A DNA stretch of 26,832 nt from a virus (taxonomy: Duplodnaviria > Caudoviricetes), in the IMG/VR virus record IMGVR_UViG_3300044652_000033, positions 1 to 26,832 of that record; one strand, written 5' to 3'. Each line of letters starts with the position of its first letter. Position 1 is the first letter of the stretch. Position numbers and translations under genes: made by a program. Below the pieces are notes generated by a model, which saw only the letters and a list, made by a program, of their open reading frames with translations, was not told the DNA's origin and searched no databases. Positions 4,327 through 26,763 of this stretch are shown here, in pieces.

Positions 4327-4936
4327 TTTTGACCTCATCGTATTGTACAGATTTGGTTTTCCGTTCCCACACCGACAGGTAATCGTGAATGCAGGGCCAC
4401 TGCGGGATGTACATTTGGTCGAGTTCTTCGTAGTCCCGCTCCAGCACCTCAAAAAACGCATCGTTTGCTGTGCAGCCGCCAGATCCTTCACCGATGTAGA
4501 TAACCGTGTCTCCGCGAAAATGCTGCAAGCACTCGTAAGCCATCGAGTCCATGTACGGCCAGCAAAGGAACAGCGTCCAACCCTTCGCATACTGTGGGTC
4601 GGAGAGCACGCTAGGCTCGCCATAGCGGACGGGAAAATGCAATCGCATCTTCCAATCATTTTTTCTATGGCTACCTGGAGGCGCTTTATCGTAGGCGTGG
4701 ACCACAGCGCCCATTTCCGTCAGCAGTTTCGCCCAATAGCCTCCACCGGCACCAATTTCGACTATGGGTGAGAAGGACGCTACCCTCTCCAAGGCATTCG
4801 GCGAGGGGATAGCAAAAGCGTACTCCTCAAGGAGCTTATCTCGCGATAGGAGCATAGGGAGGGCTGGAATGGGTAGATTTGTTTCTACCGTGCCGCCCAG
4901 CGCCTTCCATTTTTCGTAGTATTCAATCGTGGGCAT
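4316..4936 (-). CDS. Class I SAM-dependent methyltransferase-like protein
   Basis: IVEIGAGGGYWA SAM-binding motif, acidic AYD after strand 2, LFLCWP, VIYIGE..GGCTA. Confidence 0.7.
   Translation of the reverse strand: MPTIEYYEKWKALGGTVETNLPIPALPMLLSRDKLLEEYAFAIPSPNALERVASFSPIVEIGAGGGYWAKLLTEMGAVVHAYDKAPPGSHRKNDWKMRLHFPVRYGEPSVLSDPQYAKGWTLFLCWPYMDSMAYECLQHFRGDTVIYIGEGSGGCTANDAFFEVLERDYEELDQMYIPQWPCIHDYLSVWERKTKSVQYDEVKNEV
4339..4350 (-). promoter_or_regulatory. Copy of recurring CTGTACAATACG promoter-like motif upstream of queD
   Basis: Matches copies at 16919-16934 and 26748-26763; contains a TACAAT -10-like hexamer. Confidence 0.45.
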
Positions 4937-5429
4937 GTCGTTTTACCGCCTTCAGGAAATACTCAAAAGAGAACATGACGAACCGCCGCCGGGCATGGAT
5001 GAAAACGAGGAATGGGAAGGCGACCTTTTTCATGTCTGGGACGACGTAGGAGCGAAATCGCGACAGCGACACCACGCAGTAGTCGCCCGTATTGTTGCCG
5101 CTCATGACGAGGAGCAACGTCCGCCCTTCCGCGCGCGGATCGTTCTCTTGACGGATCGCCTGATCCATCCAATTTTGCATGAGCTTGTTTCCCGTAAAGG
5201 CAAAGTACACCCGCCAGCTTTTGTCATGCTTCGACTCTACCGTAAACGGGACGATTTTTCGGAGTGCAGGTGAGATGCAGAGGTCTCCGCCATCCGCGTG
5301 CGGGTGTCCTCCGCTCAACGGAGTCCGATAGCAGTCCTTCGCGCAAAAGGGAGGGCCTACGGCCGCGAGGATGAGTTTGGCGACCTTCCTTTCGTGTTCA
5401 TTGCCCTTGTCCCGGCTGCGTTTGCTCAT
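4923..5429 (-). CDS. Holliday junction resolvase-like PD-(D/E)xK nuclease
   Basis: SRDKGNEHERKVAKL, RTPLSGG, GDL and VESKH motifs typical of phage Hjc-type resolvases. Confidence 0.75.
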   Translation of the reverse strand: MSKRSRDKGNEHERKVAKLILAAVGPPFCAKDCYRTPLSGGHPHADGGDLCISPALRKIVPFTVESKHDKSWRVYFAFTGNKLMQNWMDQAIRQENDPRAEGRTLLLVMSGNNTGDYCVVSLSRFRSYVVPDMKKVAFPFLVFIHARRRFVMFSFEYFLKAVKRHAHD

Positions 5430-5830
5430 GGCTTACGATACACCTTGAAGGCTCCTGGCGCGTCGGAATTGCAAACGACCAAATGTCGGTGTTCTGCGTC
5501 GCCATCCCACCGCAGCCATGCCACGTAATTGTCGGACGGTTCAGGCTGGAAAGGAAGGTCGTGTCGTTTTTCCAAGTCCAGCATACTGATATGACTGTTG
5601 ACTAGCGTCCACGCGCACCCCTCGGCGGTCTTCTGATACACCACCCAATAAGGACCAGAGCCTCGCACCATGGCGCGTCGAATCATGCCAGCCACCCCGA
5701 CTTTGACTGCGCTATGAAACGTCGTTACCGCATCGCCATCGAAAAGCTCCTCTCCGTTGCGGTCAAACATCCCGGTGCTGCGCCCAGGCACAACATCCTC
5801 CATTACAGGGGCCTGAAACCATCCTGCCAT
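5426..5830 (-). CDS. YopX-like phage protein
   Basis: STGMFDRNGEELFDGDAV resembles the YopX TGxxDxNGxEIYEGDIV motif. Confidence 0.55.
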   Translation of the reverse strand: MAGWFQAPVMEDVVPGRSTGMFDRNGEELFDGDAVTTFHSAVKVGVAGMIRRAMVRGSGPYWVVYQKTAEGCAWTLVNSHISMLDLEKRHDLPFQPEPSDNYVAWLRWDGDAEHRHLVVCNSDAPGAFKVYRKP

Positions 5831-5832
5831 TT

Positions 5833-8640
5833 TTAAACCTCCAACCTTGAGACTCCGTTTTCCTTGACGACCTCCAAATTACGCTCGCCCGACAGCGCAG
5901 ACAGAATATGCGGATTGTGGGTCGTCACCCAAATACTTCCGAACTTGTCTGCGATTTGCGTTAGCGCATTGGCGAACACCGTGGCATTGTGACTGTCGAG
6001 GCCCTCGCCTGGCTCATCCAAAAAGAGAACGTTCATCGGCACCATGACCTCGCGCAAGGCGAAGGAAACGATGAGGCTCGCCATCCTGCTTTCGCCCTGC
6101 GATTGATCCTCCACCGTAGCCCCGCCATGGACGTTGATAATGCAAACGTCGATATCCTCTCCGTCGATCAGAAACTCCACCGCGATCTCACCTTCGGAAA
6201 ACAGTTCCGAGTAGAACTCTGCCGCTGCGTTGAGGCGCGGGACTAGCTGGGCGGCGAGGTACGCTGGCAATCCGTCGCGAGAAAAGACATGGATGCAGAA
6301 GTTGTAAAACTCGATCTCCGAATGAAGCCCGCGCATCGCAAACTCGATGGATTTTTTCCCTTGCCGGGCCTTCCGCAGCGTTTCCGCGTATTCGGCGTGC
6401 TCCGCTTCCTGCTCCTTTCCGGCGGTGAGAGCCTGGTCTGCCATGCGGAAACGCAGCAGCGCCGAGCTAAACGCTTGCTCTAAGGGCTCTAGCGTGGCGC
6501 CCAACTTCTGTTCCTTGACCCGAAGCACCGCCATCTCCTCTTTTACCCGCTTTGCCTCCGATTTATGCTTCGACGCCAGCGCTTCCAGACGATCCCATTC
6601 CGCCTGCCACTCCTCCGCGCATTTGTGCAAAATGTCCTTGTCCACTTTTTGCTTGCACGTCGGGCAAATGCCGTCCATCGACTTGGCGCGCAGGATATTC
6701 GCGTTCAGCGGCGACTGCTTGCCTTCCGCAAGCGCCGCCTCCGTAATGAGGTCCGAAAGGTACGAGTCTTTTTTGGATAGCTCGTTACGAATAGCCTGGC
6801 GCTCGTTGTCGATCCGCTCCTTCTCCGCGTCGAGTTCTTTTTTCGCCTTGTCCTTGGCTTTGCGAGCGAGGTCTAGCTTTTCTTCGAGGTCGGCGATATC
6901 GTAGGTTTTCAGCGACCCGAGGAACTGTTTTACGGTCTGGATCTTTTGCGCTACCATCTCCGCATCCACGCTCAGACGATCCAGCGCGTCCTCTGTTTTT
7001 CTTCGATCCGCCTTCACCCGCTCCAGCGCAACCGCAAAGCGCTCCAGATTCTGAAACTGGCTGAAGATCGACTTCCGGTCTTTATCTGTACCTGTCAACA
7101 GCGTGGAAATATGCTGCTGGTCGATGTACAGGGCGTTGGTCATCACGTCCCACGTAATCCCGGTGAGCGCCTCGAGCGTTTTCTGGCTGTCCTTATTTCC
7201 CAGCCCGGAGGACATGTCCTTGCCGTCCACGATCAGGTTCAGCTTATGCGGATTCCGCTGCCGACGCAAAACGACGTGGCGGTTGTCGGGAAGATCGAAG
7301 TCTAGCTCGCCCCAGGACGATTCGTTTTTCGGCGCTTTGTTATAGCGCCAGCCGTCGAACTGCTGACCCTTGAGCGTTTTGCCAAACAGGACGACCGCCG
7401 GGAGCTGCAAGGCGTTCGTCTTGCCCACGCCGTTCTGTCGATCCGGCCAGTCGAGGTTCGTGCCTGTCACCACCGTGATCCCTGGCTCATACGTGATGGC
7501 GATATCGCGATACGAAAGGAAATTTTTACCGCGGGCTGAGTTCAACCGCAGCCCTTCAGTGGAACGTCGAAGGACGCCGGCTTGCTCCAGCTGGGCGATT
7601 AAATACGCCGCAACCTGATCGGCGGTTTCTTCGACCAGATCGGGCTTGTGTTCCTTGACGAAATCGAAGATCAGGTCAATATCGGACGCGGCTTCGGTGA
7701 CTGGTTTAATCTGACCGTCCGTAGCGATCCGCTCTGGGAATACGACGATCAGCGAATCTGGGTAGCGCAGTTGCGCGTCGGCGCGGGCTTTTTCCTTCAC
7801 CGAAAGCAGGTGCGAGGACGATTCGTAGGGTACATGAACTCGAATCGTCGCACCTTTAAAATCATCGGGACCGAATTGATCGAACGCCGGGTAGGTTTCG
7901 TCATAGAGGCCCGGCACCGAACTCGGGAGGGATTTTATCTTGCAACCCGCCAATTGATCGTCGAGGTCTACAAGCAGGTACCTTTTGCGCTGGTTCGCTT
8001 CGCCAAAATCGGTGCAGAAAGGACTGCCGACGTAGTAAACATTTTCCTCGAGCTTTTGCGGGAAGTGGAGGTGACCGCCAATGCAGAAACGGTACTTGTC
8101 TGGAAAGAGTTCGTCTACTTTGAGCGCCGAGGTGTCGCGCGAGATCATGTGGCGGCTCATTTTCGCTGTGGACAGTTCCTGATGGAAGAACAATACCGAG
8201 TCCTTGCGCTCCGCCGATCTCTGCGCCCAGTCCTTTAATTGCTCGCGAGCGGCTTGCAGGCTGTCTTGATACGGGAGCATGAAAAAGCGATACGGCGACC
8301 CGAGCAGGTGCAGTTCGGTGGGTGTGGTGACGACGTGCGCCCCAGCCGAAGCAAGGACTGGCGCGCAGGATCCCGTTTCAAAGGACATCCCGATGCGGTC
8401 GTGATTCCCCATCAAGACAATAAAACCTAGCTCCTCTTCCTGGAAACGCTTGGTAACGTCCACCATGAAATTCGTGACTCTTTGGTCTACCGGGTTGAGG
8501 GCATTTTTTACGTCGCCGCAATGCACGATGGTAGAAACCTTGTGCTCATGCGCGTATCGGATCAGGTCGTCCACCGCCATCCAGCATTTGGGCAAATTGA
8601 CCGGAGTCGCTTGCCAGTCCGAAGAGACGAGGAGCTTCAT
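5833..8640 (-). CDS. Fused Mre11/SbcD metallophosphoesterase and Rad50/SbcC ABC ATPase
   Basis: N-terminal SDWQ, HCGD, GNHD, FHQE, GHLH, YVGSP; C-terminal NFLSY, NGVGKT Walker A, Q-loop, coiled coil with CPTC hook, SQGE signature, LFLDEP, TTHN. Confidence 0.9.
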   Translation of the reverse strand: MKLLVSSDWQATPVNLPKCWMAVDDLIRYAHEHKVSTIVHCGDVKNALNPVDQRVTNFMVDVTKRFQEEELGFIVLMGNHDRIGMSFETGSCAPVLASAGAHVVTTPTELHLLGSPYRFFMLPYQDSLQAAREQLKDWAQRSAERKDSVLFFHQELSTAKMSRHMISRDTSALKVDELFPDKYRFCIGGHLHFPQKLEENVYYVGSPFCTDFGEANQRKRYLLVDLDDQLAGCKIKSLPSSVPGLYDETYPAFDQFGPDDFKGATIRVHVPYESSSHLLSVKEKARADAQLRYPDSLIVVFPERIATDGQIKPVTEAASDIDLIFDFVKEHKPDLVEETADQVAAYLIAQLEQAGVLRRSTEGLRLNSARGKNFLSYRDIAITYEPGITVVTGTNLDWPDRQNGVGKTNALQLPAVVLFGKTLKGQQFDGWRYNKAPKNESSWGELDFDLPDNRHVVLRRQRNPHKLNLIVDGKDMSSGLGNKDSQKTLEALTGITWDVMTNALYIDQQHISTLLTGTDKDRKSIFSQFQNLERFAVALERVKADRRKTEDALDRLSVDAEMVAQKIQTVKQFLGSLKTYDIADLEEKLDLARKAKDKAKKELDAEKERIDNERQAIRNELSKKDSYLSDLITEAALAEGKQSPLNANILRAKSMDGICPTCKQKVDKDILHKCAEEWQAEWDRLEALASKHKSEAKRVKEEMAVLRVKEQKLGATLEPLEQAFSSALLRFRMADQALTAGKEQEAEHAEYAETLRKARQGKKSIEFAMRGLHSEIEFYNFCIHVFSRDGLPAYLAAQLVPRLNAAAEFYSELFSEGEIAVEFLIDGEDIDVCIINVHGGATVEDQSQGESRMASLIVSFALREVMVPMNVLFLDEPGEGLDSHNATVFANALTQIADKFGSIWVTTHNPHILSALSGERNLEVVKENGVSRLEV

Positions 8641-9402: not shown

Positions 9403-9603
9403 TATCGGCATATGAACAATAGCGTCCTCGCCCTCGCCTATCAGCATCCAGCCACCCGAACCGTTTCCATCCTCATAGCGCACAGCGCAATCCTCAAGAT
9501 GCTCCGCCTCCATCAACTCAGCAGCGGCAAATGCGACATCCCGCGCATCCACGTTGGTTTTGGTGCCTCTCAAAATCTTTTGGTGGTAAATCTTTACCGT
9601 CAT
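9385..9603 (-). CDS. Hypothetical protein (72 aa)
   Basis: ATGA overlaps at both ends; SD present. Confidence 0.65.
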   Translation of the reverse strand: MTVKIYHQKILRGTKTNVDARDVAFAAAELMEAEHLEDCAVRYEDGNGSGGWMLIGEGEDAIVHMPIEEKGQ

Positions 9604-9617
9604 TGCCCCTTCTCCTC
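9599..9617. repeat. 19-bp direct repeat copy 2
   Basis: Identical to 9384-9402. Confidence 0.85.
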
Positions 9618-10217
9618 CAACCGCTGCATAGCGATATACACCGCCTCCCGCAACTCTGCGATCTTGCCAAACTCTCGCGCCCTCCTAAAGTACTCCAGAA
9701 ACGTACCGCGAGCCGGAAGTTCTCCAAAGTCAATCCCCAGACTTTGAACGATCCCGACCTGCATGTGATACGGAAGGCTGAGGAATTTGCGCGCCAGCTG
9801 AAATGTGTCCATAGCTTTTTGGACTGCTACAGACTCGGTGGGCTCCTTGATTGACTGGTAATCACCATCGGCAGTCCTCACCCAATTTTTGCGCGTCTGG
9901 ACCTCGGCGAATTTTCGCTCCATCGCCTCCAGCCATTGCTGCACCGTAAAGCCTGCGCGTTTCAGCGAATGCAGCAACAGCATTCCACAATCCGCCCACT
10001 CCTCCAGATCGTCTGGATGCTCGCGCACCTCGTCCACTTCCTTTTTTAGGTGGCTCAGTTTGCTGTCCAGCGTTTCGTCAGGGAATATACCGCGCGCCCA
10101 TTCGTCGTGCCGGTCCACGAAGTCTTGAAGTTTTTTGTTTTCCATATAATCGCGCAACCTGTAATAGTCCGCTTCAGTGAAGGGAACGCATTCCTCGAAC
10201 CAGGTTGAGTCGTCCAT
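9600..10217 (-). CDS. DUF550/MazG-like dATP/dGTP pyrophosphohydrolase with an extra C-terminal helical domain
   Basis: EWARGIFP...KLSHLKKEVDEV...DLEEWADCGMLLL...AG...K....RKNW all-alpha NTP-PPase pattern; start revised to ATG 10217 (TGATG overlap). Confidence 0.75.
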   Translation of the reverse strand: MDDSTWFEECVPFTEADYYRLRDYMENKKLQDFVDRHDEWARGIFPDETLDSKLSHLKKEVDEVREHPDDLEEWADCGMLLLHSLKRAGFTVQQWLEAMERKFAEVQTRKNWVRTADGDYQSIKEPTESVAVQKAMDTFQLARKFLSLPYHMQVGIVQSLGIDFGELPARGTFLEYFRRAREFGKIAELREAVYIAMQRLEEKGQ

Positions 10218-11005
10218 CAGTCCGCCACCATCGCCGCCCGCTGACAGCAAACGTCGAGGGCGCCAAAGGAACAATTGCGGAGGAGGAAATCGAGCGCTCG
10301 CCGCAGCTTGTCCTTCTCCGTTTTGGGAGCCGGCTGCATTTTCGCTCGCGGGTTCACGCCCATACAGTCGAGGCAATGCACGTAATCCCCTTCCTCCAAC
10401 GTGTCCTTGCCGCTGAAGGATTCTGGACGAATGTTGACACTGCCGCAACCACCGCATACGAGGCGGTCTTTCAGCACCTCGCCGAGCTTCCCTTCCGCAA
10501 ATACCAGCGACGGTAGAAACCAAACCTCCCAGAACTGACCAGAAGCTCCGCGCCGCGAACGCAGGCAATGAAATCCGTAGGACTCCAATTTGTCGGCTTC
10601 GTGCTTGTAGTTCTCTGGGCTGTAGTTGTAGCCGCAGAGGTGCTGGATCAAGATCGACGGATAGTTCCAGACCTCGATTGTGTCGAAGTCGAAGTTCTTG
10701 GGACCGCTGAAGTCCTGCGGCTTCTCACCAAAGAGCGGACGCTGGGCTCCTGGATTCCAATGCGGCGCAAGCGCTGAATCCACGGTCGGCTCGGGCAGCG
10801 GCTTGTGCTTTTCGCGCGTCTCCAACCGCCCTTCCTCGTCCACGCCAACCCATGAACATTGGGCGTCTATGGCGTGTCGGAATCGGTCCACTTCGCCCGT
10901 GAACAGATTGGTAACCGTCACCTCGCCTGTTGGGTCGTTGCCATGGTAACGAGTACCGAGCTTCATTCCGGCGATTCGTACTCTGGGCGCTTTTTCTTCG
11001 CTCAT
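10217..11005 (-). CDS. Hypothetical protein (262 aa) with CGGC...CLDC zinc ribbon
   Basis: Start revised to ATG 11005 (ATGA overlap); tiles with neighbours. Confidence 0.7.
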   Translation of the reverse strand: MSEEKAPRVRIAGMKLGTRYHGNDPTGEVTVTNLFTGEVDRFRHAIDAQCSWVGVDEEGRLETREKHKPLPEPTVDSALAPHWNPGAQRPLFGEKPQDFSGPKNFDFDTIEVWNYPSILIQHLCGYNYSPENYKHEADKLESYGFHCLRSRRGASGQFWEVWFLPSLVFAEGKLGEVLKDRLVCGGCGSVNIRPESFSGKDTLEEGDYVHCLDCMGVNPRAKMQPAPKTEKDKLRRALDFLLRNCSFGALDVCCQRAAMVAD

Positions 11006-12889: not shown

Positions 12890-13170
12890 TATGCTATCCT
12901 ACGCAAACCGCGATGCGGTAAGGCGCACTTCACGCGGACAGACAACTGATGATTGTTGAACTGGCGATGCAACTCCCATTCATTGACCTGCTGGCGCGCC
13001 TCGCGCCCGTCTGAACTGATCTCGAAGCGCTCGCTGGACACGTTCCATTGCACCCACTTTCGGTAGCAGATGGAACCGAAAATGTTCTGGTTCAGTTCCT
13101 CTGCCTGCGCTATCGAAAGACCGCGCCTGCGCACGATCTCATCCAACATCTTCAGTTGTCGTATCGTCAT
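12889..13170 (-). CDS. Hypothetical protein (93 aa)
   Basis: Start revised to ATG 13170 (ATGA overlap). Confidence 0.6.
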   Translation of the reverse strand: MTIRQLKMLDEIVRRRGLSIAQAEELNQNIFGSICYRKWVQWNVSSERFEISSDGREARQQVNEWELHRQFNNHQLSVRVKCALPHRGLRRIA

Positions 13171-16409: not shown

Positions 16410-16910
16410 TCACGGTCTCCCTGGATATTTGGCGTGCAGTTTTTTGCGCAAATCGTCCAGCGCGGTAGCGCTGTCGATATGATCCAACATACGCATCTCA
16501 GCGTTGTTGGTATTCTGCACCGTCCAAATCATGTCTTTCCTTTGACGGAGCCCTTCCAGGAGTAGCTTGCAAAACTCTTCCTGGGCTTCTAAATCGGACA
16601 GATTCTTTTCGGCTTTTCGCACCTCAGGCAGCGTGTCGAGCTTTTCCTTGATCGCGCCTTCCGTAATCTTGTCCCCAACCTGCGCGGCCTTCGCTCGAAT
16701 CGCTAAAGACAACTTGGCGCGAAGTGTTTTCACCTCCATGTCAGCAGCGGCGCGCTGGCGTCCTGATTGAACGCGCAGTCTTGCTGCCTCGAGAAATAGC
16801 GTTGGTTGCGCGAGTGCAGCCGCCACCGCGTTTTTGTCGTCAAACGGAATCCTGTCGAGGATCGCCGCTACGTCCACCGCCTGCTGCAATAGACTTTCGA
16901 TTTCCTTCAT
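16410..16910 (-). CDS. Alpha-helical protein, possibly a UvsY-like recombination mediator
   Basis: All-helical 166-aa protein upstream of ssb/recA; the functional call rests on context and size only. Confidence 0.5.
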   Translation of the reverse strand: MKEIESLLQQAVDVAAILDRIPFDDKNAVAAALAQPTLFLEAARLRVQSGRQRAAADMEVKTLRAKLSLAIRAKAAQVGDKITEGAIKEKLDTLPEVRKAEKNLSDLEAQEEFCKLLLEGLRQRKDMIWTVQNTNNAEMRMLDHIDSATALDDLRKKLHAKYPGRP

Positions 16911-16918
16911 TTTGCCTT

Positions 16919-16934
16919 CACCGTATTGTACAGG
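16919..16934 (-). promoter_or_regulatory. Intergenic promoter-like motif CCTGTACAATACGGTG
   Basis: Fills a rare intergenic gap; 15/16 identical to 26748-26763. Confidence 0.6.
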
Positions 16935-17147
16935 TCAGGTTCGTTTTCTCGGTTGGCGGATCGGTTTTGCGGTAAATCGGTACTGCGGATGCTCGATAGG
17001 CTGTCCGCCGTGCAGGATAACCTCAGCCATTGCGCGATCCAAACCTGTAATCTTTTCGATGTACACGAAAAACTCGTCCGTCTTTTCAGGACGCACGTAG
17101 AGGTTTTCCTTCGTAGACTTTCGAAAGACGAAGTATTGATGCGTCAT
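16935..17147 (-). CDS. Hypothetical protein (70 aa)
   Basis: ATGA overlap with the polymerase stop. Confidence 0.6.
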   Translation of the reverse strand: MTHQYFVFRKSTKENLYVRPEKTDEFFVYIEKITGLDRAMAEVILHGGQPIEHPQYRFTAKPIRQPRKRT

Positions 17148-19951
17148 GCCGCTGCCACCAGCCCGAACTCCTTCTCCATTTTGGCGTTGGTTTCTTCGTT
17201 CTTACGCCGCCAATTGTCGATGAAAACCGGGCCCTCCTCACCGCGATAGCCTACCTTAGCTCCCATCCGATACATCGCCTCCGCCTCGCACGCGAGCGGT
17301 ACGGACAGCGTGAACCCAAAGTTCTTGGTCACGTATTCTGGGACCGAATGCTCCAGCAAATGCTTTCCCTGCGCGTACATTTCGGGAAGGTCTTCCGTCT
17401 CCCCAAAGAAATACAGGGCGTCATGCACCTCCATCACCACGTCCTGAAGCAGGCTATAGGTCTTGGGCTTTTCATGCAGGTTTACCATCGCCATCAGCAC
17501 CAATTGATGCGCGGATCCTTGAATCGGCGAATTGACCGCTTGATTACCCCAGAACGTATGACGCGACTCATCCCAGGACCCAATCTCACGCCGGAACCCG
17601 AACAATGTGTCCGTCCAGCCGTACCGTTCCACGTGGTCGCGCTGGGCTGCGATGTATGCCGCCACGCCCTTGTACTTTTTGAAGTACGCTCGATAGAGTT
17701 CCCCAAACGCCTGGCGCTTGATTTTGACGCCCTTGGACAGCGCATCCTGATAAGCGGATTCTTCGGACATCCCATACACGATGCCGAAGTGCAACTGCTT
17801 AATCATCGTGCGGGTGACCTTGTCCTCCTTGATTTTCGCCGGATCCCAGCCTGTCAGCGAATGACCAACGAGGCAATGCACGTCCGCCCAAGGATCGTCA
17901 GGGTTCTCTGCCTCTGCGGCTCTTTGGAACATCGAAATCAAGAGCGGATCGCGAGAGGCTTCGGCGAGGACGCGGATTTCGATCTGCGAGTAGTCCAGCG
18001 CGAAGATCGCGCGCAAACGACGCAACCTGTCCCAATCCTGTTTTTTGTCGAGGACCAGGCGCCAGTTTTTATCAGAGATCAGCAGGTTCTGGAGCAGCGG
18101 CGACCCATGCAGGTTCTGGAAATTGACGATGCCGTCCGCACCATCCTCCTTGCCACCGCTGCGCATTCTCCCGGTTGCGGTGCCTGCCAGATGCCAGCGC
18201 GTGCGCAGTTCGCCGCCGTTCAGATCCGCGGATTTTTTGTACCCTTTTAGATACGTCGAATCCATCTTGAAGTACTTGCGGTACTCCAAAACTAAACGCG
18301 GAAATTCGTGCCGCTGCGCCAACAGCGACATGATATCCTCTGCCGTGGTGCGCGGACGGTCTTTATCGAGGACAGGTAGCTTTAATTTGTCGTAAATGAC
18401 TTTGGCAACGTCGGCTGGCGTGTTGGGGTTGAAATCCGGATCGCCAGCCATGACGCGGAGTTTTTCACCCAGCCGTTCCACCTGACGCGGAATCACGTCG
18501 CCCAACTGATCCATGTACACGGTGTCGAGGACAGGTCCTTTTTTCTCCATCGCATCCACGACGAACGCGGCAGAGATGTAGACCTTCAACAGCGCGCGGG
18601 TTTTCTGTCCCTTCGGGTTGGTCTTGTGCTCTAGTCTCTTGGTGAGGTCGGCGTCTGCGCAGTTGTAGAGGGACAGTGTAGAAAGCGGGATGCTGGCGTA
18701 GTTCCGATCCTCACCTGGCTTGAAATGCTGGTCGATGATGGACTTGTACCCAGCAAACTCCGGGAAGGCAAACACCGACATTTCGCCCAGCCCGTACTTG
18801 GCTTTATGCGGCCAGCGAAAATACGCGGCATAGAAGGTGTCGAAATCGTACCCTTTGACGCGCAGCCCGTATCGACGCAAGCCGCGCACGTCTGAGGATC
18901 CAAAGTGCAGCACCTTCCTGATTTTCGGATCCGCGAGGATGTCCCGAGCCGTTTGCCAGCAGGCTTCGCGGTCCTCGGCGCTCGCGTTGTTTTCTGGATG
19001 ATCGAGGACGAGACAGCGGGCGTGCGCTTTGGGCAAGGTACCAATCGTGTCGGGCTCATTGGGTACGCTTTTCGTCTTGAACCCAAGGTCCCAGGAAAAC
19101 CCGATCATGAGGAGAATCGAATTTCCTTGATCGTCCAGACCTTCCTCGATATCGACCGAAATCCGCTGTCCCTGCGCTGCCACCTCGCGCAGTTTCGTTT
19201 TAAGCCACGCCGCGTTTTTTGCGGTGGTGACGTTGCGATAATCCTGGGCTTTGATGTAGCCGTAGCGACCAGGCGCAGAGAGGAACGCTTTGGCGGCGCG
19301 GATGCGGTCGCGGAATTCGTACAGGCGCCATTCTGGGTAGTTCTTTCGAACGAAGTACGACGGATGATCGCAGACCACCACCATCCCTTGCAGTTTTTCG
19401 GACCAATAGACAGGCTTGTCGCCCTTGTACTCTTTTCCCAGGAGCGCCTTGACCGCAACCTTGCCAAACACCAAATGAACGACCGCCTTGCCGTCGTTTT
19501 TCTCTATCGCTTGGTCGTTGAAGATGGAACAGTGGAATAGCTGTTCTTCGGACGGTTCGGCGTCGATTCGATTCCCGTGGTCGCTGATTTTCGTGGGTCG
19601 GCAGCGGCAGACGTTCTGGATATCGCAGTCCTTCCGCTCGATCTTGAAACGGCCAAGCTCCTCCCACAGCCATTCGCCAGCCGGACCGACGAACTCGAGG
19701 CCCTCGTCGTTTTCTTTGCGCCCGGGAGCCTGTCCCCAGAGCATGATTCGTCGCCCTTTGATTCGCTCCAGACCAATGACCTTGTTCACCTTGGCGCGGT
19801 TGAGCGAGCAGTAGCGACAGCCGGGAGGTCCCCAGGACAGCCGCTCCTTTTGCTTTGCGGTTTGCTGTTTCCTCGCTCGCCCAGGTTTTCCAGGCTTCTC
19901 GAGGACGACCAGCTTACCCGAATCGAATAGCGACGGCGCAACGTAGCTCAT
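17144..19951 (-). CDS. polA: Family A DNA polymerase with N-terminal family-4 UDG-like domain and 3'-5' exonuclease (SPO1-type architecture)
   Basis: CRYC..GQAPG..E...FVGPAG..NVCRCRP..HPSY; exonuclease DIE and YNCADA; TATGR, NFQN, LDYSQIEIRVLA, R...K...FGIVYG, NSPIQGSA, VHD. Confidence 0.93.
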   Translation of the reverse strand: MSYVAPSLFDSGKLVVLEKPGKPGRARKQQTAKQKERLSWGPPGCRYCSLNRAKVNKVIGLERIKGRRIMLWGQAPGRKENDEGLEFVGPAGEWLWEELGRFKIERKDCDIQNVCRCRPTKISDHGNRIDAEPSEEQLFHCSIFNDQAIEKNDGKAVVHLVFGKVAVKALLGKEYKGDKPVYWSEKLQGMVVVCDHPSYFVRKNYPEWRLYEFRDRIRAAKAFLSAPGRYGYIKAQDYRNVTTAKNAAWLKTKLREVAAQGQRISVDIEEGLDDQGNSILLMIGFSWDLGFKTKSVPNEPDTIGTLPKAHARCLVLDHPENNASAEDREACWQTARDILADPKIRKVLHFGSSDVRGLRRYGLRVKGYDFDTFYAAYFRWPHKAKYGLGEMSVFAFPEFAGYKSIIDQHFKPGEDRNYASIPLSTLSLYNCADADLTKRLEHKTNPKGQKTRALLKVYISAAFVVDAMEKKGPVLDTVYMDQLGDVIPRQVERLGEKLRVMAGDPDFNPNTPADVAKVIYDKLKLPVLDKDRPRTTAEDIMSLLAQRHEFPRLVLEYRKYFKMDSTYLKGYKKSADLNGGELRTRWHLAGTATGRMRSGGKEDGADGIVNFQNLHGSPLLQNLLISDKNWRLVLDKKQDWDRLRRLRAIFALDYSQIEIRVLAEASRDPLLISMFQRAAEAENPDDPWADVHCLVGHSLTGWDPAKIKEDKVTRTMIKQLHFGIVYGMSEESAYQDALSKGVKIKRQAFGELYRAYFKKYKGVAAYIAAQRDHVERYGWTDTLFGFRREIGSWDESRHTFWGNQAVNSPIQGSAHQLVLMAMVNLHEKPKTYSLLQDVVMEVHDALYFFGETEDLPEMYAQGKHLLEHSVPEYVTKNFGFTLSVPLACEAEAMYRMGAKVGYRGEEGPVFIDNWRRKNEETNAKMEKEFGLVAAA

Positions 19952-20172: not shown

Positions 20173-21294
20173 TTATTTCCTCGCGATGATGAGATCGAGT
20201 TTATTTTTACCCTTCGTACCGCGAAAACTGTAAGGGCTGGCGTCGGTAAACGCTACCGACATGCTGGGCTCGGAGGCGAGGAACTCTGTGAGGGGCAGCA
20301 GCGTGGCTAGCGGCCATTCTACTGCAACGTCCTCAGTCAGCCCCTTGTCGATGGTCAGCGCCTCGTGGAAGGCGCCCTGTAGCGCTTCTGACGTGAGCAC
20401 GACCACCTTTTTCCCAGCGCTTCCTTTGCACCTCACGGAAACGTCTGTCGATCCGCCGCCAGACGTGTATGTCTGAAGCCGTTGCAGGATTATCAAAAGG
20501 TCATTGGGCTTGAAGGTCAGCGTCACCGGAAGTTTGGCGCATTCCTTCACCATGTCTGAAATCTGGTCGGTGGGGAAGCCCACGCGGCATTCGTCGTTTA
20601 TCAGCTGGAATAAATAACCGCTGGGCTGGAAGGTAATCCGCGTCCCTTTTTCGCCGACCTGAATGCCGTCCACGGCTTGGTTGCTCAGGATCTCTGGCAG
20701 CATTCGCGGGAAGGGCATGGTCATCGGGATCGAGGAATCGGCAGCGGAGAACATCACCACCTGATTCGAAGATTGAATCCCTTTACCCTTGGAAAGATAA
20801 ACGCAGTTCAGGTTGGCGGCGGTGGGATCGAGCGGAGCGTATTTAGCGGCGAGCCGAATCAAGGCTTTGTGGTCGTCGGTCAGCGAAACGGTCGTCAGTT
20901 CCTTGAGGTTCGCCTTGGCGTAGCCCGAAACCACGTCCAGCCCTTGGATATTGGCTCGGCGGCGCTTGTACCTGATTTTCAACTCGCCAGCTGACGTTTT
21001 CGGATCCGTTGAGGTGAACTCAGTAATGATATCGTCGGCGTCGGTGGCGCAGTCACAAGCGTTGATAAACGCTGACATGGCGCGCCTGTCTGCGTAAGCC
21101 ACCCACGCCTCGCCGTTCGAAGAACCGTTGGCGGCTACGGCCACCTCGCCGAACATTTCTGCCGACAGCGCCATCGTCAAGTAACCTTTGGACGCGGTGC
21201 AACGAATGTACTCGGACGGACGAATCCCGGAACGCGACGGTACCAGGGAAATGATCGAAAGCGCCTCGCGCAACTTCACAGCAGGCAGGTTCAC
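20173..21294 (-). CDS. Sliding clamp, DNA polymerase III beta-like (divergent)
   Basis: 373 aa, three-domain alpha/beta periodicity, LNCVYL and FP motifs at DnaN-like positions; near polA, with a clamp loader in the window. Confidence 0.65.
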   Translation of the reverse strand: MNLPAVKLREALSIISLVPSRSGIRPSEYIRCTASKGYLTMALSAEMFGEVAVAANGSSNGEAWVAYADRRAMSAFINACDCATDADDIITEFTSTDPKTSAGELKIRYKRRRANIQGLDVVSGYAKANLKELTTVSLTDDHKALIRLAAKYAPLDPTAANLNCVYLSKGKGIQSSNQVVMFSAADSSIPMTMPFPRMLPEILSNQAVDGIQVGEKGTRITFQPSGYLFQLINDECRVGFPTDQISDMVKECAKLPVTLTFKPNDLLIILQRLQTYTSGGGSTDVSVRCKGSAGKKVVVLTSEALQGAFHEALTIDKGLTEDVAVEWPLATLLPLTEFLASEPSMSVAFTDASPYSFRGTKGKNKLDLIIARK

Positions 21295-21950
21295 TTTTTT
21301 CTCCTCATGGCGATGGATTGCAGAAACTCCTCCTTAACGCTCGGGTCATCCTTGAAGCAACCCGACAATGCGCTGGTGACGGTCACGGATCCTGGACGCT
21401 GGACGCCGCGGATCGTCATGCACAAGTGCTCCGCCTCCATCACCAGCCCGCAGCCTTTGGGAGCGACCTCTTCCTGAAACGCCACCACCACCTGCTGCGT
21501 CAATTGCTCCTGCAGTTGCAGACGATGGCTGAAAACGTCGATCAGGCGCGGCATTTTCGAGAGCCCAACCACGCGCTTGTCAGGCAGGTAACCGAAGTGC
21601 GCTTTCCCAATGAACGGCAGCAGGTGGTGGCTGCAAAGGCTGACGAAGTCGATATCGACCACCATCACCATCTGGTCGTAACGTCCTTCCTCGAAGCCCA
21701 CGTCACCGCTGGTTGTCGCAAGCGCTTCGGCGGGCGTAGCGTAATAGCCCCACAGAAACTCGGAGTAAAAATTCGCCACGCGCGTGGGCGTGTCGCGCAG
21801 ATGGCTGAAGTGGACGTTATCGCGCACCACCTTATCACTGACCAACGCCTGTACGCCTCGCTTTAGATCGTGGTACCAGAGGGGCTGCGATCCTGGCACC
21901 AAAGAGGGGTCCTCCATCTGTTCTTCCTTCCTTACAGCAATGTCTTCCAC
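21291..21950 (-). CDS. folE: GTP cyclohydrolase I
   Basis: DTPTRVA, SLCSHHLLPFIGKAHFGYLP, GLSKMPR, RLQLQEQLT, HLCMTIRG. Confidence 0.95.
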   Translation of the reverse strand: MEDIAVRKEEQMEDPSLVPGSQPLWYHDLKRGVQALVSDKVVRDNVHFSHLRDTPTRVANFYSEFLWGYYATPAEALATTSGDVGFEEGRYDQMVMVVDIDFVSLCSHHLLPFIGKAHFGYLPDKRVVGLSKMPRLIDVFSHRLQLQEQLTQQVVVAFQEEVAPKGCGLVMEAEHLCMTIRGVQRPGSVTVTSALSGCFKDDPSVKEEFLQSIAMRRKK

Positions 21951-22909
21951 CGCATCTCCTTTTTCGTCGTATATCGACGTGATACAGATTCAAAAACGTG
22001 CAGGTTGTACAACGCTCGCGCCGCGCGGCTAGAGCGAACATCCTGAAAACGAATCCCTGCCGCTTTTACCTGCTCCGATAGGTAACTCCACTGTCGTCTG
22101 GTCGTCGCGTCCCACGTCACTTTTTGGTCGGATACAGCCACCTCGCGAATCGTCGGTCGGCTGTAGGCGTGATGCACCACGTCCATCACCTTGCCGTACG
22201 CCGCTGCCTTCAGCCAGGTCGCGGAATCGACAGAATGCCAAGGCCAGGAAAACATGTCGCCGCCTGTCATTGCAAAGCCATGCAACGCCACCCCATACTT
22301 TGCGGCGACGTTGAAAACGTGGTCGTAGTACCGGCGACGGCGAACCTTCCCTTCCGTCACCTCCGTCCACGAAACACCAATCAGCCTATGACCTTCGTCG
22401 ATGTAGCGCCGCAGCCAACTTATGGAATCGTCACCGTGGTACACAGGCATCGGTTGCACGCCAAGTTTATAGAGACGCTGGGTGACGTTATAGATTACCT
22501 GGCAATCTTGCTCGTAATCGACGGTCGCATAAAAGTCCAGGAGCCCTGTTTTGCGGATTTCGGCGATGCGCGCCGCATAGGCGTGCAGGTACTCGTCCAG
22601 ACGTTTTTCCACTATCGCCTTGCTGGTATGTTTCGTCTGGCGATTGGCCCAATTGCGTCCGTAAATCAGGTTGTGGAAGGTGTGGGCGCCGCTGTCAAGG
22701 AAAATACGCACGCCGTGCCGCTGGCAGAAGTCAAGGGTCTTGAACTGCTGCCGCGGTCCTTTGGGGGCACCCAGAAAAGCGAATGATACGCAGCGGTGGG
22801 TGAAGGGCACCCGCGCATGAAAGGCGTCCTCGTCCACGTTCGAAACGCCGCTGTAATAGATGATTGGAGAACGGTCGGTTTCGCGGCGCCCAATCCACTC
22901 AGCGGTCAT
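21932..22909 (-). CDS. dpdA: DpdA/TGT-like guanine transglycosylase, copy 2
   Basis: IFLDSGAHTF, TVD, PVYH, LHGFA and WHSVDSATW motifs; adjacent to folE. Confidence 0.8.
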   Translation of the reverse strand: MTAEWIGRRETDRSPIIYYSGVSNVDEDAFHARVPFTHRCVSFAFLGAPKGPRQQFKTLDFCQRHGVRIFLDSGAHTFHNLIYGRNWANRQTKHTSKAIVEKRLDEYLHAYAARIAEIRKTGLLDFYATVDYEQDCQVIYNVTQRLYKLGVQPMPVYHGDDSISWLRRYIDEGHRLIGVSWTEVTEGKVRRRRYYDHVFNVAAKYGVALHGFAMTGGDMFSWPWHSVDSATWLKAAAYGKVMDVVHHAYSRPTIREVAVSDQKVTWDATTRRQWSYLSEQVKAAGIRFQDVRSSRAARALYNLHVFESVSRRYTTKKEMRWKTLL

Positions 22910-23562
22910 ATCTGCGCCGTTTTAGAAAAACATGAAGGCAGGTCGTTGATCGTGTCAATGCGCCAGCGCGGTCCAGAACCCAGTGAGGGAAGGTTTTTTC
23001 CCACGCCAATGAAGGGAACACCTGCCATGTCTGCCGCCGCCTGGTCGTCTGCCATGTCGCCGACGTAGGCTGCGATTTCTGCGTAGGTGTTCATCGCCTG
23101 TAAGACGTGCGGACGCGGCTTTTTGGGCATCGGCGTTTCGCAGGTGACGACTGGATTAAACCAGTACCTGCAATCGAAGCGCTCGAAAGAGCGAATGAGG
23201 TCGCGCACCGGCCGCCCTGTCCAGATCGCTAGCTGGAAGCGCTGGGCGAGTTCTTCGAGCAGTCCTGGACGCGGGAGCCAGACCTCCTTGTCCATCATGT
23301 GCGGAAGAATGCGATTGAACTCTCGGTCGAGGTCCGAATAGTTGCATTTGAAGCCGTTGGCGTCGAGGAACAACTGCGCTGTCAGCACGTCGTCATTATT
23401 GGCGCCGGAATGACGATTGCGGAACTTGATTTGGGTTTCGGCGTCGAAGTCCAGGTCTGAAAACATACCCACCAGTTCCTCCGTCGCCGCAAGGTAGGTC
23501 TGGGAGGCGTCGATTAAAACGCCGTCCACGTCCAGAACGAGAATCGGTTTGGTTATTCGCAT
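22906..23562 (-). CDS. HAD-superfamily phosphatase (subfamily IA, TIGR01548-like)
   Basis: LDVDGVLID, NND, WTGRP, KPRP, YVGDMADD. Confidence 0.85.
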   Translation of the reverse strand: MRITKPILVLDVDGVLIDASQTYLAATEELVGMFSDLDFDAETQIKFRNRHSGANNDDVLTAQLFLDANGFKCNYSDLDREFNRILPHMMDKEVWLPRPGLLEELAQRFQLAIWTGRPVRDLIRSFERFDCRYWFNPVVTCETPMPKKPRPHVLQAMNTYAEIAAYVGDMADDQAAADMAGVPFIGVGKNLPSLGSGPRWRIDTINDLPSCFSKTAQI

Positions 23563-24212
23563 GGTGGGTATAATACCTCCAGGTTTTGTTTGCCGCGAAG
23601 CAACTCTGCCACTGCGTCAGGGCCTTCCGCCTCCGCCATTTCCATGAGCGAAGGCAAACCTGTCTCCACGCTTTGCTCGATTTGCGCCCGCGTAGCTGGC
23701 TTGCCCTCCGCGTACCATTCGACCATGTGCGGATCGCCGATGTTGAACAGGAAGCCTTTACCGTCTCGAATGAGCCTGTAATCCCGCGTCACCCACAGCG
23801 CCGTTACACCCGGATTTCGCGTCAGGCAAACCCCAGCCGACGTTTCCTGAATCGTTTGGTTGTTCAGCAGATCGTCCTCGCGCCGGACCATGTGCGGGCG
23901 GGTGAGGAAAGGGCAGTTGCGCGCCGACCATCGCGCGCAGTCGAGGTGGGATGGCGGCTCCGACGAAATGCGATTGACGCCGCACATAGGACCAATAACA
24001 AAACACAGGTTCGCACCCAGCCGATTCCCGCAAACCCAGCAAAGTTTTTCGGTGATCGCTCGCGTAAACTTCTGGCGGCTCATGGCGCGGAACTCCGGTT
24101 CGCCGTTGATCCATTCGACAAACCAAGGAACGACGTAGCCGCGCTTGTCGATCGGTAGCGCTTGCATCCGCTCTGGGAGCGGTTCCAATTCAGGACGTAA
24201 TAGTGTACTCAC
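23553..24212 (-). CDS. Hypothetical Cys/His protein, putative Zn-binding (219 aa)
   Basis: RGYVVPWFV, LCWVCG, EPPSHLDCARWSARNCPFL; start revised to GTG 24212 with AGGAG SD. Confidence 0.7.
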   Translation of the reverse strand: MSTLLRPELEPLPERMQALPIDKRGYVVPWFVEWINGEPEFRAMSRQKFTRAITEKLCWVCGNRLGANLCFVIGPMCGVNRISSEPPSHLDCARWSARNCPFLTRPHMVRREDDLLNNQTIQETSAGVCLTRNPGVTALWVTRDYRLIRDGKGFLFNIGDPHMVEWYAEGKPATRAQIEQSVETGLPSLMEMAEAEGPDAVAELLRGKQNLEVLYPPCE

Positions 24213-24213
24213 G

Positions 24214-24882
24214 TTATTTCTCCTGGAACGCGGTCGCCGCAGCCGCTTGCCGAGCCACGCCATGGTCGATAGTGTGGAACACCTTGTACAGCGGGATCGA
24301 AGCGTTAAACCCGGTTTTACGGCAGTACTCCAGAAGCCCTGTGATCTCTTCCTGATTCGCCTCGCGCGGAAGGATGGAGACGATGGGCCGCGTGGTCTGG
24401 TGCCTCGGAATCATCGCCAGAATGCGCTCGATATTCGCCTCCCACATGTCTGTGTCGTTGATCGACCAGAACAGGCGCAGCTCGTGGGCGGCGCGAATGA
24501 CCTCCTTGCAGACGGGCAGGCGCGGGTAGGGACCGACGCTCAAAAAGCTGACCAGGTCGAGGCGTTCGAAGGGGTGAAACCCGGTCACATCGAGGTAGAT
24601 GCGATAGCCTATCGCGTCTAGGGTCTCCAGCAACTCGTCAATCATGCAGAAGGACGGATCCGAGCCCATGATATGAACCGTGTCCCTGCCCGCCTGGGAG
24701 CAGGCTTCTGCGATCTCCAGCGCCGTCATGAGCTTGATATCGCACAGGCGCGGCACGCAATGTAGGTACTTGAACTCGGGCAAATGCCCGAACCGGACGA
24801 GGGTCAGCACCTCGCCTGTCTTGGGTCCTTCGCCTTCCACATTGACGAGGATTTCGTTTATTGGAAACTTGGCAACTTCCAT
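24214..24882 (-). CDS. Degenerate QueE paralog lacking a complete radical-SAM cysteine triad
   Basis: Colinear with queE: FPINEILVNVEGEG, LVRFG, HIMGSDP, LDVTG, LSVGP, ELRL, ILP, PLYKVF; start revised to ATG 24882 with AGGAG SD. Confidence 0.75.
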   Translation of the reverse strand: MEVAKFPINEILVNVEGEGPKTGEVLTLVRFGHLPEFKYLHCVPRLCDIKLMTALEIAEACSQAGRDTVHIMGSDPSFCMIDELLETLDAIGYRIYLDVTGFHPFERLDLVSFLSVGPYPRLPVCKEVIRAAHELRLFWSINDTDMWEANIERILAMIPRHQTTRPIVSILPREANQEEITGLLEYCRKTGFNASIPLYKVFHTIDHGVARQAAAATAFQEK

Positions 24883-25490
24883 ATCTCTCCTGTCACTTTT
24901 TGGTTTAAAATGCAATCCACAGCAAAATCCACAGCTTTATCGGCCGGCATCGGCTCTACGGGCAAACTGGGATCGAAGGCGTTTAGGTCAACGCAGGTAT
25001 GGTACATGCCCGTGTCCACTAGCCCCAGAGCCAGCCCGTTCACGCGAATCCCTTTCGACAACAGTTCCCGCGAAGCCGACAGCACCCACTCCGCCACCCA
25101 GGCTTTGGAGCAGTTGTAGAGGATCTGATTTTTTGGGTGGTCGTAAATGTCGTGGGACAACATGCAGAAAATCGACCCACGAATCAACCTGTCCCTCAGC
25201 AAAGTACGAGTAGCGAGAAGCGGCGCCCAGGCGTTGACGATGGTCACCCGAAAGAGGTCATCGAACGTAAAAAGATCGCAGCTACCAAACGCTAGCACGC
25301 CGGAATTGAAAACAACGATATCGACAGGTGAACCATGCAGGTGCTGGGCTATTTTTTCGTACGCCATATCATTCTGGAGGTCGAATCCGTTCGACCGCGA
25401 GACGCCAACAACGTTATGCCCTTGCTCCGTCAGCTTTTTTCGGAGCAGGCTCCCGATGCCACCTGTATGACCGACTAGAAGAATCTTCAC
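24858..25490 (-). CDS. Short-chain dehydrogenase/reductase (SDR)
   Basis: GHTGGIG, VFNSG, VN, YNCSK (YxxxK), GIRVNGLALGLVDTGM; start revised to GTG 25490 (GTGA overlap, GGAGG SD). Confidence 0.85.
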   Translation of the reverse strand: MKILLVGHTGGIGSLLRKKLTEQGHNVVGVSRSNGFDLQNDMAYEKIAQHLHGSPVDIVVFNSGVLAFGSCDLFTFDDLFRVTIVNAWAPLLATRTLLRDRLIRGSIFCMLSHDIYDHPKNQILYNCSKAWVAEWVLSASRELLSKGIRVNGLALGLVDTGMYHTCVDLNAFDPSLPVEPMPADKAVDFAVDCILNQKVTGEIWKLPSFQ

Positions 25491-26542
25491 AGCAACCTCC
25501 CCCATCCGCGATTTTGTACCTTGTATTGATTCGAAATGTCCACGAACGTTTTGGCGTTGTATAGCCCTCGCTGCGTCAAACTGGTGCAAAGCTGGCGCAG
25601 TTCGAATCCCTTTTTCGCTACCCGGTCTTCCAGATCCCGAAGGACAGGCTTGGGGAGGTTCTTCAGAGCGAAGGCGTTCGCCTTCCCAGCGTTCGCCATT
25701 ACGTCGGAGACATGAAGGACGCGCAGGCGGAGGCGACCGTTTGCAGTCGGAACCGTGTCCACGATTGAGCCAAATGCAGCGACTTTGAGCCAGCTGGAAC
25801 TATCGACGCTGTACCACGGGTACGCGAATGCCGCCCGGCCTGTCTGCGCGAACCCATGCAGGTAAACGTTGTGCTTGGCGGCGAGGTTGAAAACCCGGTC
25901 GTAATACTGACGACGGTAGTTGCCGCCCTGCGTAGCGTGCGACCATGAAATACCGATCAGTTTATGCCCGTCGTCAATGTACCGCTCCATCCACTCCAGC
26001 GTTTCATTCCCGTGGTAGACAGGGATCGGGCGGATGCCCAAGCGGTAGAGGTCGCGCAAGACTCGGAAAATCGCCGCGCAGCCCTTTTCGTAATCGAAGT
26101 TCACGTAAAACGCGAACCGTCCGTACTTGGCCTGGTAATCGCACACGAATTTGGCGTACCGCTCCACGTACCCGGCCACCAGCATTTTAATGGCGGTCAG
26201 TTTATCGACTCCGGAGGGCAGGTTCGGGAGCTTTTTGCCCTTGAAAAACACGTTATGGAACGTATGCGCGCCGCTGTCGAGGAACACCCGAACACCGTGC
26301 GTCATGCAGAAGTCGAGCGCCTTGCGATTTTCCTGACTGAACAAACCCGTGTCGGTCCCACAATATGCGTAGGACAAGCAACGATGGCGCACACCGACGC
26401 GCAGGAAGTCCTCCTCCGTAGCCTGAGCCGACTTCGGGATGCCAGAAAAATAGATGATGGGATGAGGGTCGCCTGGTTGCGGACCGTCCCATTCCGCTAT
26501 GCCAAGCGTTTTTTCAGGCTTGGGGGTAGGAAGAGCCGACAT
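25487..26542 (-). CDS. dpdA: DpdA/TGT-like guanine transglycosylase, copy 1
   Basis: VFLDSGAHTF, NFD, PIPVYH, LHGFA and WYSVDSSSW motifs; start revised to ATG 26542 with GGAG SD. Confidence 0.8.
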   Translation of the reverse strand: MSALPTPKPEKTLGIAEWDGPQPGDPHPIIYFSGIPKSAQATEEDFLRVGVRHRCLSYAYCGTDTGLFSQENRKALDFCMTHGVRVFLDSGAHTFHNVFFKGKKLPNLPSGVDKLTAIKMLVAGYVERYAKFVCDYQAKYGRFAFYVNFDYEKGCAAIFRVLRDLYRLGIRPIPVYHGNETLEWMERYIDDGHKLIGISWSHATQGGNYRRQYYDRVFNLAAKHNVYLHGFAQTGRAAFAYPWYSVDSSSWLKVAAFGSIVDTVPTANGRLRLRVLHVSDVMANAGKANAFALKNLPKPVLRDLEDRVAKKGFELRQLCTSLTQRGLYNAKTFVDISNQYKVQNRGWGRLL

Positions 26543-26748
26543 AATCTCCGATCGTCGCAAAGGATCCTGCAGGCCGTTACCTGAGGGTTGTATGCGCCTC
26601 CAAAGCAAATATTCACAGACTCGCGCATGGCGAGGTAGCATTCTGCGCAGACCAGAGTGCGCGGAAAAAAGCGCAGGTCGGCGACACTCTTTTCATTGTG
26701 CCGATCCCCGCACACCGCGCACTCATAGAAACGCTTAAATTGCGCCAC
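26497..26748 (-). CDS. Small Cys-rich protein (CAVC..CAEC..CFG..C...C.....C)
   Basis: Eight cysteines in 83 aa; first gene after a promoter-like motif. Confidence 0.6.
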   Translation of the reverse strand: MAQFKRFYECAVCGDRHNEKSVADLRFFPRTLVCAECYLAMRESVNICFGGAYNPQVTACRILCDDRRLCRLFLPPSLKKRLA

Positions 26749-26763
26749 ACCGAATTGTACAGG
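26748..26763 (-). promoter_or_regulatory. Promoter-like motif CCTGTACAATTCGGTG at the head of the dpdA cluster
   Basis: 15/16 identical to 16919-16934; follows a TAG that probably ends the upstream gene. Confidence 0.55.

Follow-up and report, generated by a model that had tools for sequence, protein, structure and literature searches.

In the described phage systems for 7-deazaguanine DNA modification, GTP is converted to 7-carboxy-7-deazaguanine (CDG) by FolE, QueD and QueE (10.1101/2023.04.13.536721). Systems that yield 2'-deoxy-7-cyano-7-deazaguanosine (dPreQ0) combine FolE, QueD, QueE, QueC and DpdA, as in phages CAjan and Rosebush, and occur in phage Bipper without QueC (PMC6884629). 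The system of Cellulophaga phage phiST comprises FolE, QueD, QueE, DpdL and DpdA3 and yields 2'-deoxy-7-deazaguanosine (dDG); dDG and the deoxynucleoside of CDG (dCDG) are both published bases (10.1101/2023.04.13.536721). Here we describe a related locus in IMG/VR record IMGVR_UViG_3300044652_000033, a single 26,832-base fragment of a Caudoviricetes phage genome from soil metagenome runs, the whole of which was analysed and is called the window. Two DpdA-type DNA-guanine transglycosylases are encoded in it, and between them lie four genes, for a short-chain dehydrogenase/reductase (SDR), a degenerate QueE paralogue, a Cys/His protein and a HAD-family phosphatase. On balance, we favour the reading that this phage makes an already known 7-deazaguanine, and that the four genes are extras of its lineage which the base does not require.

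All three enzymes for CDG synthesis are predicted from the window, each on the minus strand: FolE (GTP cyclohydrolase I; 21291–21950; PF01227, E 3e-59; TIGR00063 above its cut-off), QueD (6-carboxytetrahydropterin (CPH4) synthase; 3820–4326; PF01242, E 7e-22; canonical CxxxHGH motif) and QueE (CDG synthase; 3099–3836; TIGR04322, E 5e-26; a solved QueE, E 8e-21). This QueE has three cluster cysteines with widened spacing (C43, C71 and C81 in the alignment). The family matches and motifs agree with an earlier interpretation drawn from the letters alone (the sequence-only reading), in which FolE, QueD and QueE make CDG and DpdA inserts a deazaguanine into DNA. That interpretation recognized none of the known tailoring genes, and our searches bear it out: a Pfam scan of 26 window open reading frames (ORFs) called no QueC, QueF, ArcS or DpdN-type family, FolE giving only a sub-threshold QueF-like match, and profiles built from relatives detected neither QueC nor DpdL in any window ORF of at least 50 amino acids. 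DpdL, whose marker is a QueD paralogue with an LxxxHRHxF motif, was also absent by tblastn; in all eight cases among the matches listed, its place in relatives is next to folE or dpdA, and that region lies within the window. PADLOC gave no matches among the 10 window proteins scanned, with no DpdB, DpdC or other bacterial Dpd island genes, and the gene context is that of phage replication.

The two transglycosylases, copy a (25487–26542, minus strand; phrog_887, E 2e-25) and copy b (21932–22909, minus strand; phrog_887, E 6e-21), are 43% identical and agree in their catalytic motif residues. As modelled (predicted local distance difference test (pLDDT) 88), copy a has the fold of tRNA-guanine transglycosylase (TGT): TGT structures match it with Z 20.2 and a root-mean-square deviation of 3.3 over 270 aligned residues, and DpdA 7UI4 is among its Foldseek matches (E 2.4e-3), while the profile of the DpdA clade reached no solved structure by sequence. 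Residues D89, D150, H177, G178 and D247 are invariant across 33 aligned DpdA sequences, D89, D150, H177 and D247, the set that covers the catalytic Asp pair and the base-binding Asp and His, being present in both window copies, and those of copy a correspond, by motif order rather than superposition, to D95, D130, H181, G182 and D256 of Salmonella DpdA (PMC10164549). Because the catalytic motif residues are invariant and match those of the Salmonella enzyme, both copies look active. The sequence-only reading named them dpdA1 and dpdA2. There are indeed two DpdA-type copies, but the names serve only as copy labels, as neither protein fits the published DpdA2 subfamily, which includes the Vibrio phage nt-1 protein and is defined by a missing active-site His (PMC6884629); both copies carry PVYHG, so that the conserved His, its position matched by motif, is kept.

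The clade to which both copies belong consists of about 32 proteins (E < 1e-30) and stands well apart from the DpdA of cultured phages; among annotated phage proteins, the nearest (25–27% identity) are transglycosylases from phages of Pseudomonas and Stenotrophomonas. In our tree, copy a groups with the proteins P0002/P0003 (0.97) and copy b is sister to them (0.84). On this tree the DpdL and QueC labels are intermingled, so that it has no predictive value for the base. A single-protein locus search of viral contigs with copy a returned no true relatives. Tandem dpdA genes occur in four other phage lineages, namely L094 (8982–10987), L045/L046 (8804–10771 in L046), L071 (9030–10957) and L121, and in L046 an ORF that looks ParB-like follows each dpdA copy. 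A twin DpdA may broaden the range of target sequences.

Compared with the DpdA1 dPreQ0 phages, the window shares FolE, QueD, QueE and a DpdA with the conserved His, but it has two DpdA copies, which fall in the separate clade, no queC in the fragment, pathway genes at two loci 17 kb apart, and four extra genes. The phiST dDG system is similar in its QueC-less core, and a DpdL-like LxxxHRH protein lies beside folE or dpdA in 8 of the 32 related loci described below; however, the window itself lacks DpdL, and its DpdA copies belong to phrog_887, the family of DpdA1-like phages. The bacterial DpdA of Salmonella Montevideo (PDB 7UI4; PMC10164549) has the same TIM-barrel TGT fold with the motif residues in order, whereas the window copies lack its CxCxxC zinc motif, are approximately 60–90 residues shorter and are accompanied by no DpdB or DpdC match. 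The toyocamycin cluster ToyA–M likewise combines FolE-, QueD- and QueE-type enzymes with a phosphatase (PMC12648386). In contrast, the window encodes DNA transglycosylases, and no QueC, phosphoribosyltransferase or purine-salvage enzyme was seen in it.

The evidence that carries our reading comes from related phages. Searching viral and metagenome contigs with the clade profile yielded at least 160 loci, to which a narrower profile added four; 43 of these loci belong to the clade and 32 are distinct at 95% identity, several of them short contigs of 1–5 kb. The conserved unit is small Zn protein–dpdA–folE–clamp–polA, and among the matches listed the 32 distinct loci include folE in 29, the Zn protein gene in 24, a DpdL-like gene in eight, QueC in two and a second dpdA in one. 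Among the same listed matches, none of the 32 has the SDR, the QueE paralogue, the Cys/His protein or the HAD phosphatase, and the SDR subfamily, the HAD and the Cys/His protein are likewise missing from all 121 more distant dpdA loci. Seventeen whole records likewise yielded no orthologue of any of these genes, the only signals there being true QueE and weak broad-SDR matches (19–35 bits) far from dpdA, one of which, on inspection, looks like a sugar-nucleotide dehydratase; PF00106 and PF13419 are absent from all four complete relative genomes tested. The sequence-only reading had proposed a new hypermodification system and had staked it on the co-occurrence of these genes with dpdA elsewhere. 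The neighbourhood comparison does not support that proposal, none of the four having been found beside dpdA in these relatives.

All seven relatives with a completeness of 82–100% have a known tailoring gene. Four (G001, G002, G005 and G013) carry a DpdL-like gene beside folE and no QueC, and the three near-complete relatives without DpdL (G003, G004 and G006) all have QueC, approximately 63 kb from dpdA; in G003 an ArcS-core (DUF5591) gene adjoins queC. The earlier suggestion that queC could lie outside the window holds. At 26.8 kb the window is about a quarter of a genome when compared with the 99–131 kb of near-complete relatives. A known base is the best reading because the four genes are absent from the 32 loci, known tailoring is found in seven of seven relatives, and the fragment, without DpdL, covers only that quarter.

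From the gene identities, motifs and order, and from the gene content of relatives, we infer the following route. FolE, QueD and QueE would convert GTP to CDG; QueC, supplied by the host or encoded in the phage genome beyond the fragment, would turn CDG into preQ0; and each DpdA would exchange guanine after replication by the mechanism described for DpdA, with its covalent Asp intermediate. A host supply of preQ0 is plausible, since the DpdA of phage 9g alone inserts host-made preQ0 in E. coli (PMC6884629). The predicted base is likely to be dPreQ0, or dCDG if no QueC acts; a DpdA can insert CDG, with low efficiency, when QueC is missing (10.1101/2023.04.13.536721).

Several results weigh against this reading. 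Between the two dpdA copies, the four genes are coupled in translation and occupy the slot where this clade keeps its tailoring genes. One relative (G015, 76% complete) has dpdA, folE, queD and queE but neither QueC nor DpdL. The closest complete relative, G013, whose polymerase is 46% identical, relies on DpdL and lacks QueC. G017, which has the SMC–resolvase gene order of the window, encodes QueC within a region that the window also spans but where the window has no queC; thus a distal queC is not assured. Furthermore, L043, a dpdA phage from outside this clade and unrelated to it, carries a cluster-less QueE paralogue of its own near folE and dpdA, an independent case, and the dpdA operon of L330 has an SDR, of a different subfamily, after folE. 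The results for L043, L330, G013 and G017 keep the case for a novel base alive, and the SDR or the QueE-like protein may still have a tailoring role, although we consider a new base in this phage unlikely. The position of the insert does not decide the matter, because both kinds of gene occupy the dpdA–folE slot in relatives: 66 selected ORFs scanned there include tailoring candidates (DpdL, QueC, radical S-adenosylmethionine (SAM) proteins, a glycosyltransferase and PIG-L) and clear passengers (HNH nucleases, RtcB, a helicase-methylase and DUF4031).

The best of the alternatives, although we give it only a minor share of the probability, is that CDG is tailored to an undescribed base, such as 7-formyl- or 7-hydroxymethyl-7-deazaguanine, by the SDR acting with the QueE paralogue and perhaps also the HAD. 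In this scheme a non-radical activation of the carboxylate by the paralogue would precede its reduction by the SDR, and one DpdA copy may have shifted to the new substrate. The location in the slot, the coupled starts, the absence of DpdL and QueC from the window and the intact SDR motifs all suit this explanation, and tailoring enzymes are known to arise from paralogues of pathway enzymes, as DpdL did from QueD (10.1101/2023.04.13.536721). In a more specific form, the paralogue and the orphan SDR replace DpdL or QueC, a specialized second DpdA writes a base reduced at C7, and cluster-less QueE constitutes a recurring tailoring class, as L043 hints; we regard this form, too, as rather unlikely. 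Against the tailoring of CDG by these enzymes stand the 0 of 32 related loci among the matches listed, the different subfamily of the L330 SDR and the Cys/His protein, one of the four genes, which is likely a passenger. A free carboxylate is also not reducible by an SDR without activation.

The QueE paralogue (24214–24882, minus strand) matches the QueE profile over its full length (E 5.5e-11), and its model has the QueE fold (TM 0.77–0.78 to QueE models). The sequence-only reading called it cluster-deficient, which is correct for the first cluster Cys, replaced by H33; however, C42 and C47 are kept, so that the motif is broken rather than absent, and the protein lacks the full set of three cysteines that bind the 4Fe-4S cluster in an active CDG synthase. 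GGEP is changed to GSDP, the SAM-site motifs are present in conservative versions, and R30, kept in the alignment, corresponds to the carboxylate-binding Arg27 of QueE (PMC5347944), in favour of tailoring. QueE can form a carboxylate–5'-deoxyadenosyl ester without reductant, which also favours it, but a C-terminal extension of approximately 20 residues falls where QueE binds its substrate by the terminal carboxylate and would displace that group (PMC9204691). No homologue of the paralogue was found among 5.8 billion proteins, which counts against a tailoring function, and its phage matches proved to be ordinary CxxxCxxC QueE (two of three inspected). A third-position G+C content (GC3) of 0.78 and a GGAG before the start, as a ribosome-binding site, suggest that the gene is live and has not decayed. 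Strain differences within it (two synonymous, two nonsynonymous) are too few to speak of selection.

In L043 the corresponding paralogue (5195–6499) has no Cys at all and keeps QSEG..R, GGEP and ETNG. The next ORF has a faint QueE-like start and no profile match, and is followed by genes in the order phosphoribosyltransferase–folE–dpdL–glycosyltransferase-like–dpdA, with a canonical queE at 12892, approximately 7 kb on. This paralogue was one of 87 QueE-profile matches, of which 10 could not be scored. In L330 (1695–9171), a contig of a metagenome-assembled genome, the order is queD–queE–folE–SDR–radical SAM-like–queC-like–PIG-L-like–glycosyltransferase-like–dpdA, some of these labels being read from the sequence.

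The SDR (24858–25490, minus strand; PF00106, E 8e-18) is a short classical member of the family, belongs to a small subfamily, and has intact GxxxGxG (G7-G11-G13), NxG (N62) and YxxxK (Y125, K129) motifs. Its best non-self match among 1.84 billion proteins is 33% identical (E 2e-12). The subfamily comprises eight proteins, and the motif P-x-x-x-x-x-YN[CLT][SAT]K is common to the SDR and the seven others. Neither the subfamily profile nor the degenerate motif returned relatives in phages or viral loci, and the subfamily therefore has no known context. Weak matches in Vibrio phage Va2 and Pantoea phage Kyle (the latter through the L330 SDR) do not lie beside deazaguanine genes, and a locus search of viral contigs with the single protein gave no true relatives. 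The HAD-IA phosphatase (22906–23562, minus strand; PF13419, E 1e-12; TIGR01548 below its cut-off) has intact DxD and GD motifs; no close relative was found in phage collections, nor any true relative in the locus search of viral contigs.

The Cys/His protein (23553–24212, minus strand) represents a phage family with 1,618 homologues, mostly viral, the best 120 of which are 54–65% identical to it; C58, C61, C77, H89, C92 and C100 are invariant in the window protein and the proteins of loci L224–L303. The sequence-only reading counted it as an unknown component of the system. It matches no known fold, but it is a common phage gene, and none of 80 viral loci has a match to dpdA, folE, queD, queE, the SDR or the HAD within 8 kb of it, the neighbours being variable; it is likely a passenger in this context. 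Its model (pLDDT 95.9) found no fold match with Foldseek (best E 0.27 and 0.11) or VIA (best Z 5.4, for C-terminal helices), a blank that does not show a new fold.

Less likely still is a role for the HAD and the SDR on the pterin side, with the base a known one: the HAD would dephosphorylate dihydroneopterin phosphates and the SDR, in the manner of FolM or sepiapterin reductase, would reduce a pterin, for a cofactor or for the clearance of side products. FolE and an enzyme of the 6-pyruvoyltetrahydropterin synthase fold are present, the SDR and HAD look intact, and known pterin routes have a phosphatase step and an SDR step after FolE. However, the best 25 of 108 NCBIfam matches of the SDR include no pteridine-reductase model, it lacks the Arg that we take to belong to the glycine motif of FolM and PTR1, and neither gene was found in relatives with the same FolE and QueD.

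It is improbable that the QueE paralogue substitutes for DpdL as a CDG decarboxylase and makes dDG by a new enzyme, even though the relatives closest by sequence (G013 and G009) carry DpdL, the window has none, and QueE folds bind CDG as their product. In phage L043 a cluster-less QueE occurs together with DpdL, and the paralogue of the window is a singleton with an altered C-terminus. The C7-decarboxylated base that the sequence-only reading offered as undescribed is in any case published, as dDG (10.1101/2023.04.13.536721). We can largely set aside incorporation by the phage polymerase of a modified deazaguanine nucleotide made in the pool, also raised earlier: a HAD, which would act like the dephosphorylating enzyme ToyI (PMC12648386), and a PF04447 domain at 9600–10568 are present, but the two intact transglycosylases leave this route little support, the 26 ORFs scanned include no phosphoribosyltransferase or kinase, a phosphatase would consume a dNTP precursor instead of building it, and Cui et al. 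propose that the modification is post-replicative in all reported cases (10.1101/2023.04.13.536721).

In a partial literature search, a twin DpdA, a cluster-broken QueE and a reduced C7 base were undescribed, although the supplementary gene tables of Cui et al. and Hutinet et al. may list such cases. Under the known-base reading the window adds another example of a phage deazaguanine system, one that stands out in two respects. The kind of system is known, and the two apparently active DpdA copies and the broken-cluster QueE paralogue are new to the literature searched; both recur in unrelated phages and are therefore testable. Should the insert be a tailoring set after all, the base would be a new natural letter of DNA and a radical-SAM fold would have a non-radical use, which would be of interest for anti-restriction biology and DNA chemistry.

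The pathway genes are embedded in a replication region whose minus-strand order is an 83-amino-acid Cys-rich ORF, dpdA copy a, SDR, QueE-like, Cys/His, HAD, dpdA copy b, folE, a clamp-like ORF, a 73-amino-acid ORF and polA. From the first gene to the clamp the eight junctions are -46, -4, -25, +1, -10, -4, -19 and -4 nt, all overlaps except for a single 1-nt gap, as expected from the contiguous run into clamp and polymerase reported earlier. The small Cys-rich, Zn-finger-like protein (26497–26748, minus strand) is a core gene of the clade, with a homologue in 24 of the 32 distinct loci, and had no family match in Pfam, PHROG or NCBIfam profile scans. The clamp-like ORF (20173–21294, minus strand), between folE and the 73-amino-acid ORF, had no Pfam or PHROG match and reached the DNA polymerase III beta subunit (E 6e-4) solely through a profile of 18 relatives. 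The polA gene (17144–19951, minus strand), which follows the 73-amino-acid ORF, encodes a family A polymerase fused to uracil-DNA glycosylase (UDG). The genes queD and queE form a separate locus, 17 kb downstream of the dpdA–folE run.

A shared upstream motif was said to link the two loci. It is real: CTGTACAAT, a likely phage promoter element, occurs on the minus strand before the Zn protein gene (26754–26762) and 16 nt before queD (4342–4350). It is not specific to the pathway, however, as a third copy (16925–16933, minus strand) precedes the gene at 16410–16910 that heads a run to ssb and recA, making three exact copies in the window against 0.07 expected. Because of this third copy, CTGTACAAT probably marks replication-phase operons in general. 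For TGTACAAT there was no clear tie to the same genes across relatives.

The relatives G001–G017 are phages of approximately 100–130 kb that have in common a dpdA–folE–clamp–polA(UDG)–ssb–recA–clamp loader–SbcCD-like block and in which the tailoring genes (DpdL-like, QueC, ArcS-core and glycosyltransferases) are interchangeable. In one of these dpdA phages (G004; L195, 7149–9803) a class III aminotransferase gene lies beside a divergent QueC and a GT2 glycosyltransferase, possibly a further tailoring set. Elsewhere in the window, a methyltransferase-like ORF (4316–4936; phrog_19090; PF13489, E 0.003) lies directly upstream of queD and was not found in relatives; a 935-amino-acid ORF (5833–8640), conserved in the clade, is a fusion of an Mre11-like phosphoesterase with a Rad50/SMC ATPase; and the PF04447 match at 9600–10568 (E 7e-14) is a dATP/dGTP pyrophosphohydrolase domain. 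Contigs of the source runs extend past both ends of the window, including a record of 5.2 kb at its right end. Of 72 strain differences, the 40 examined comprise 34 synonymous and six nonsynonymous changes. Throughout the window (1–26832) GGCC is strongly depleted (observed/expected 0.39), as is CCGG (0.63), which suggests host restriction pressure.

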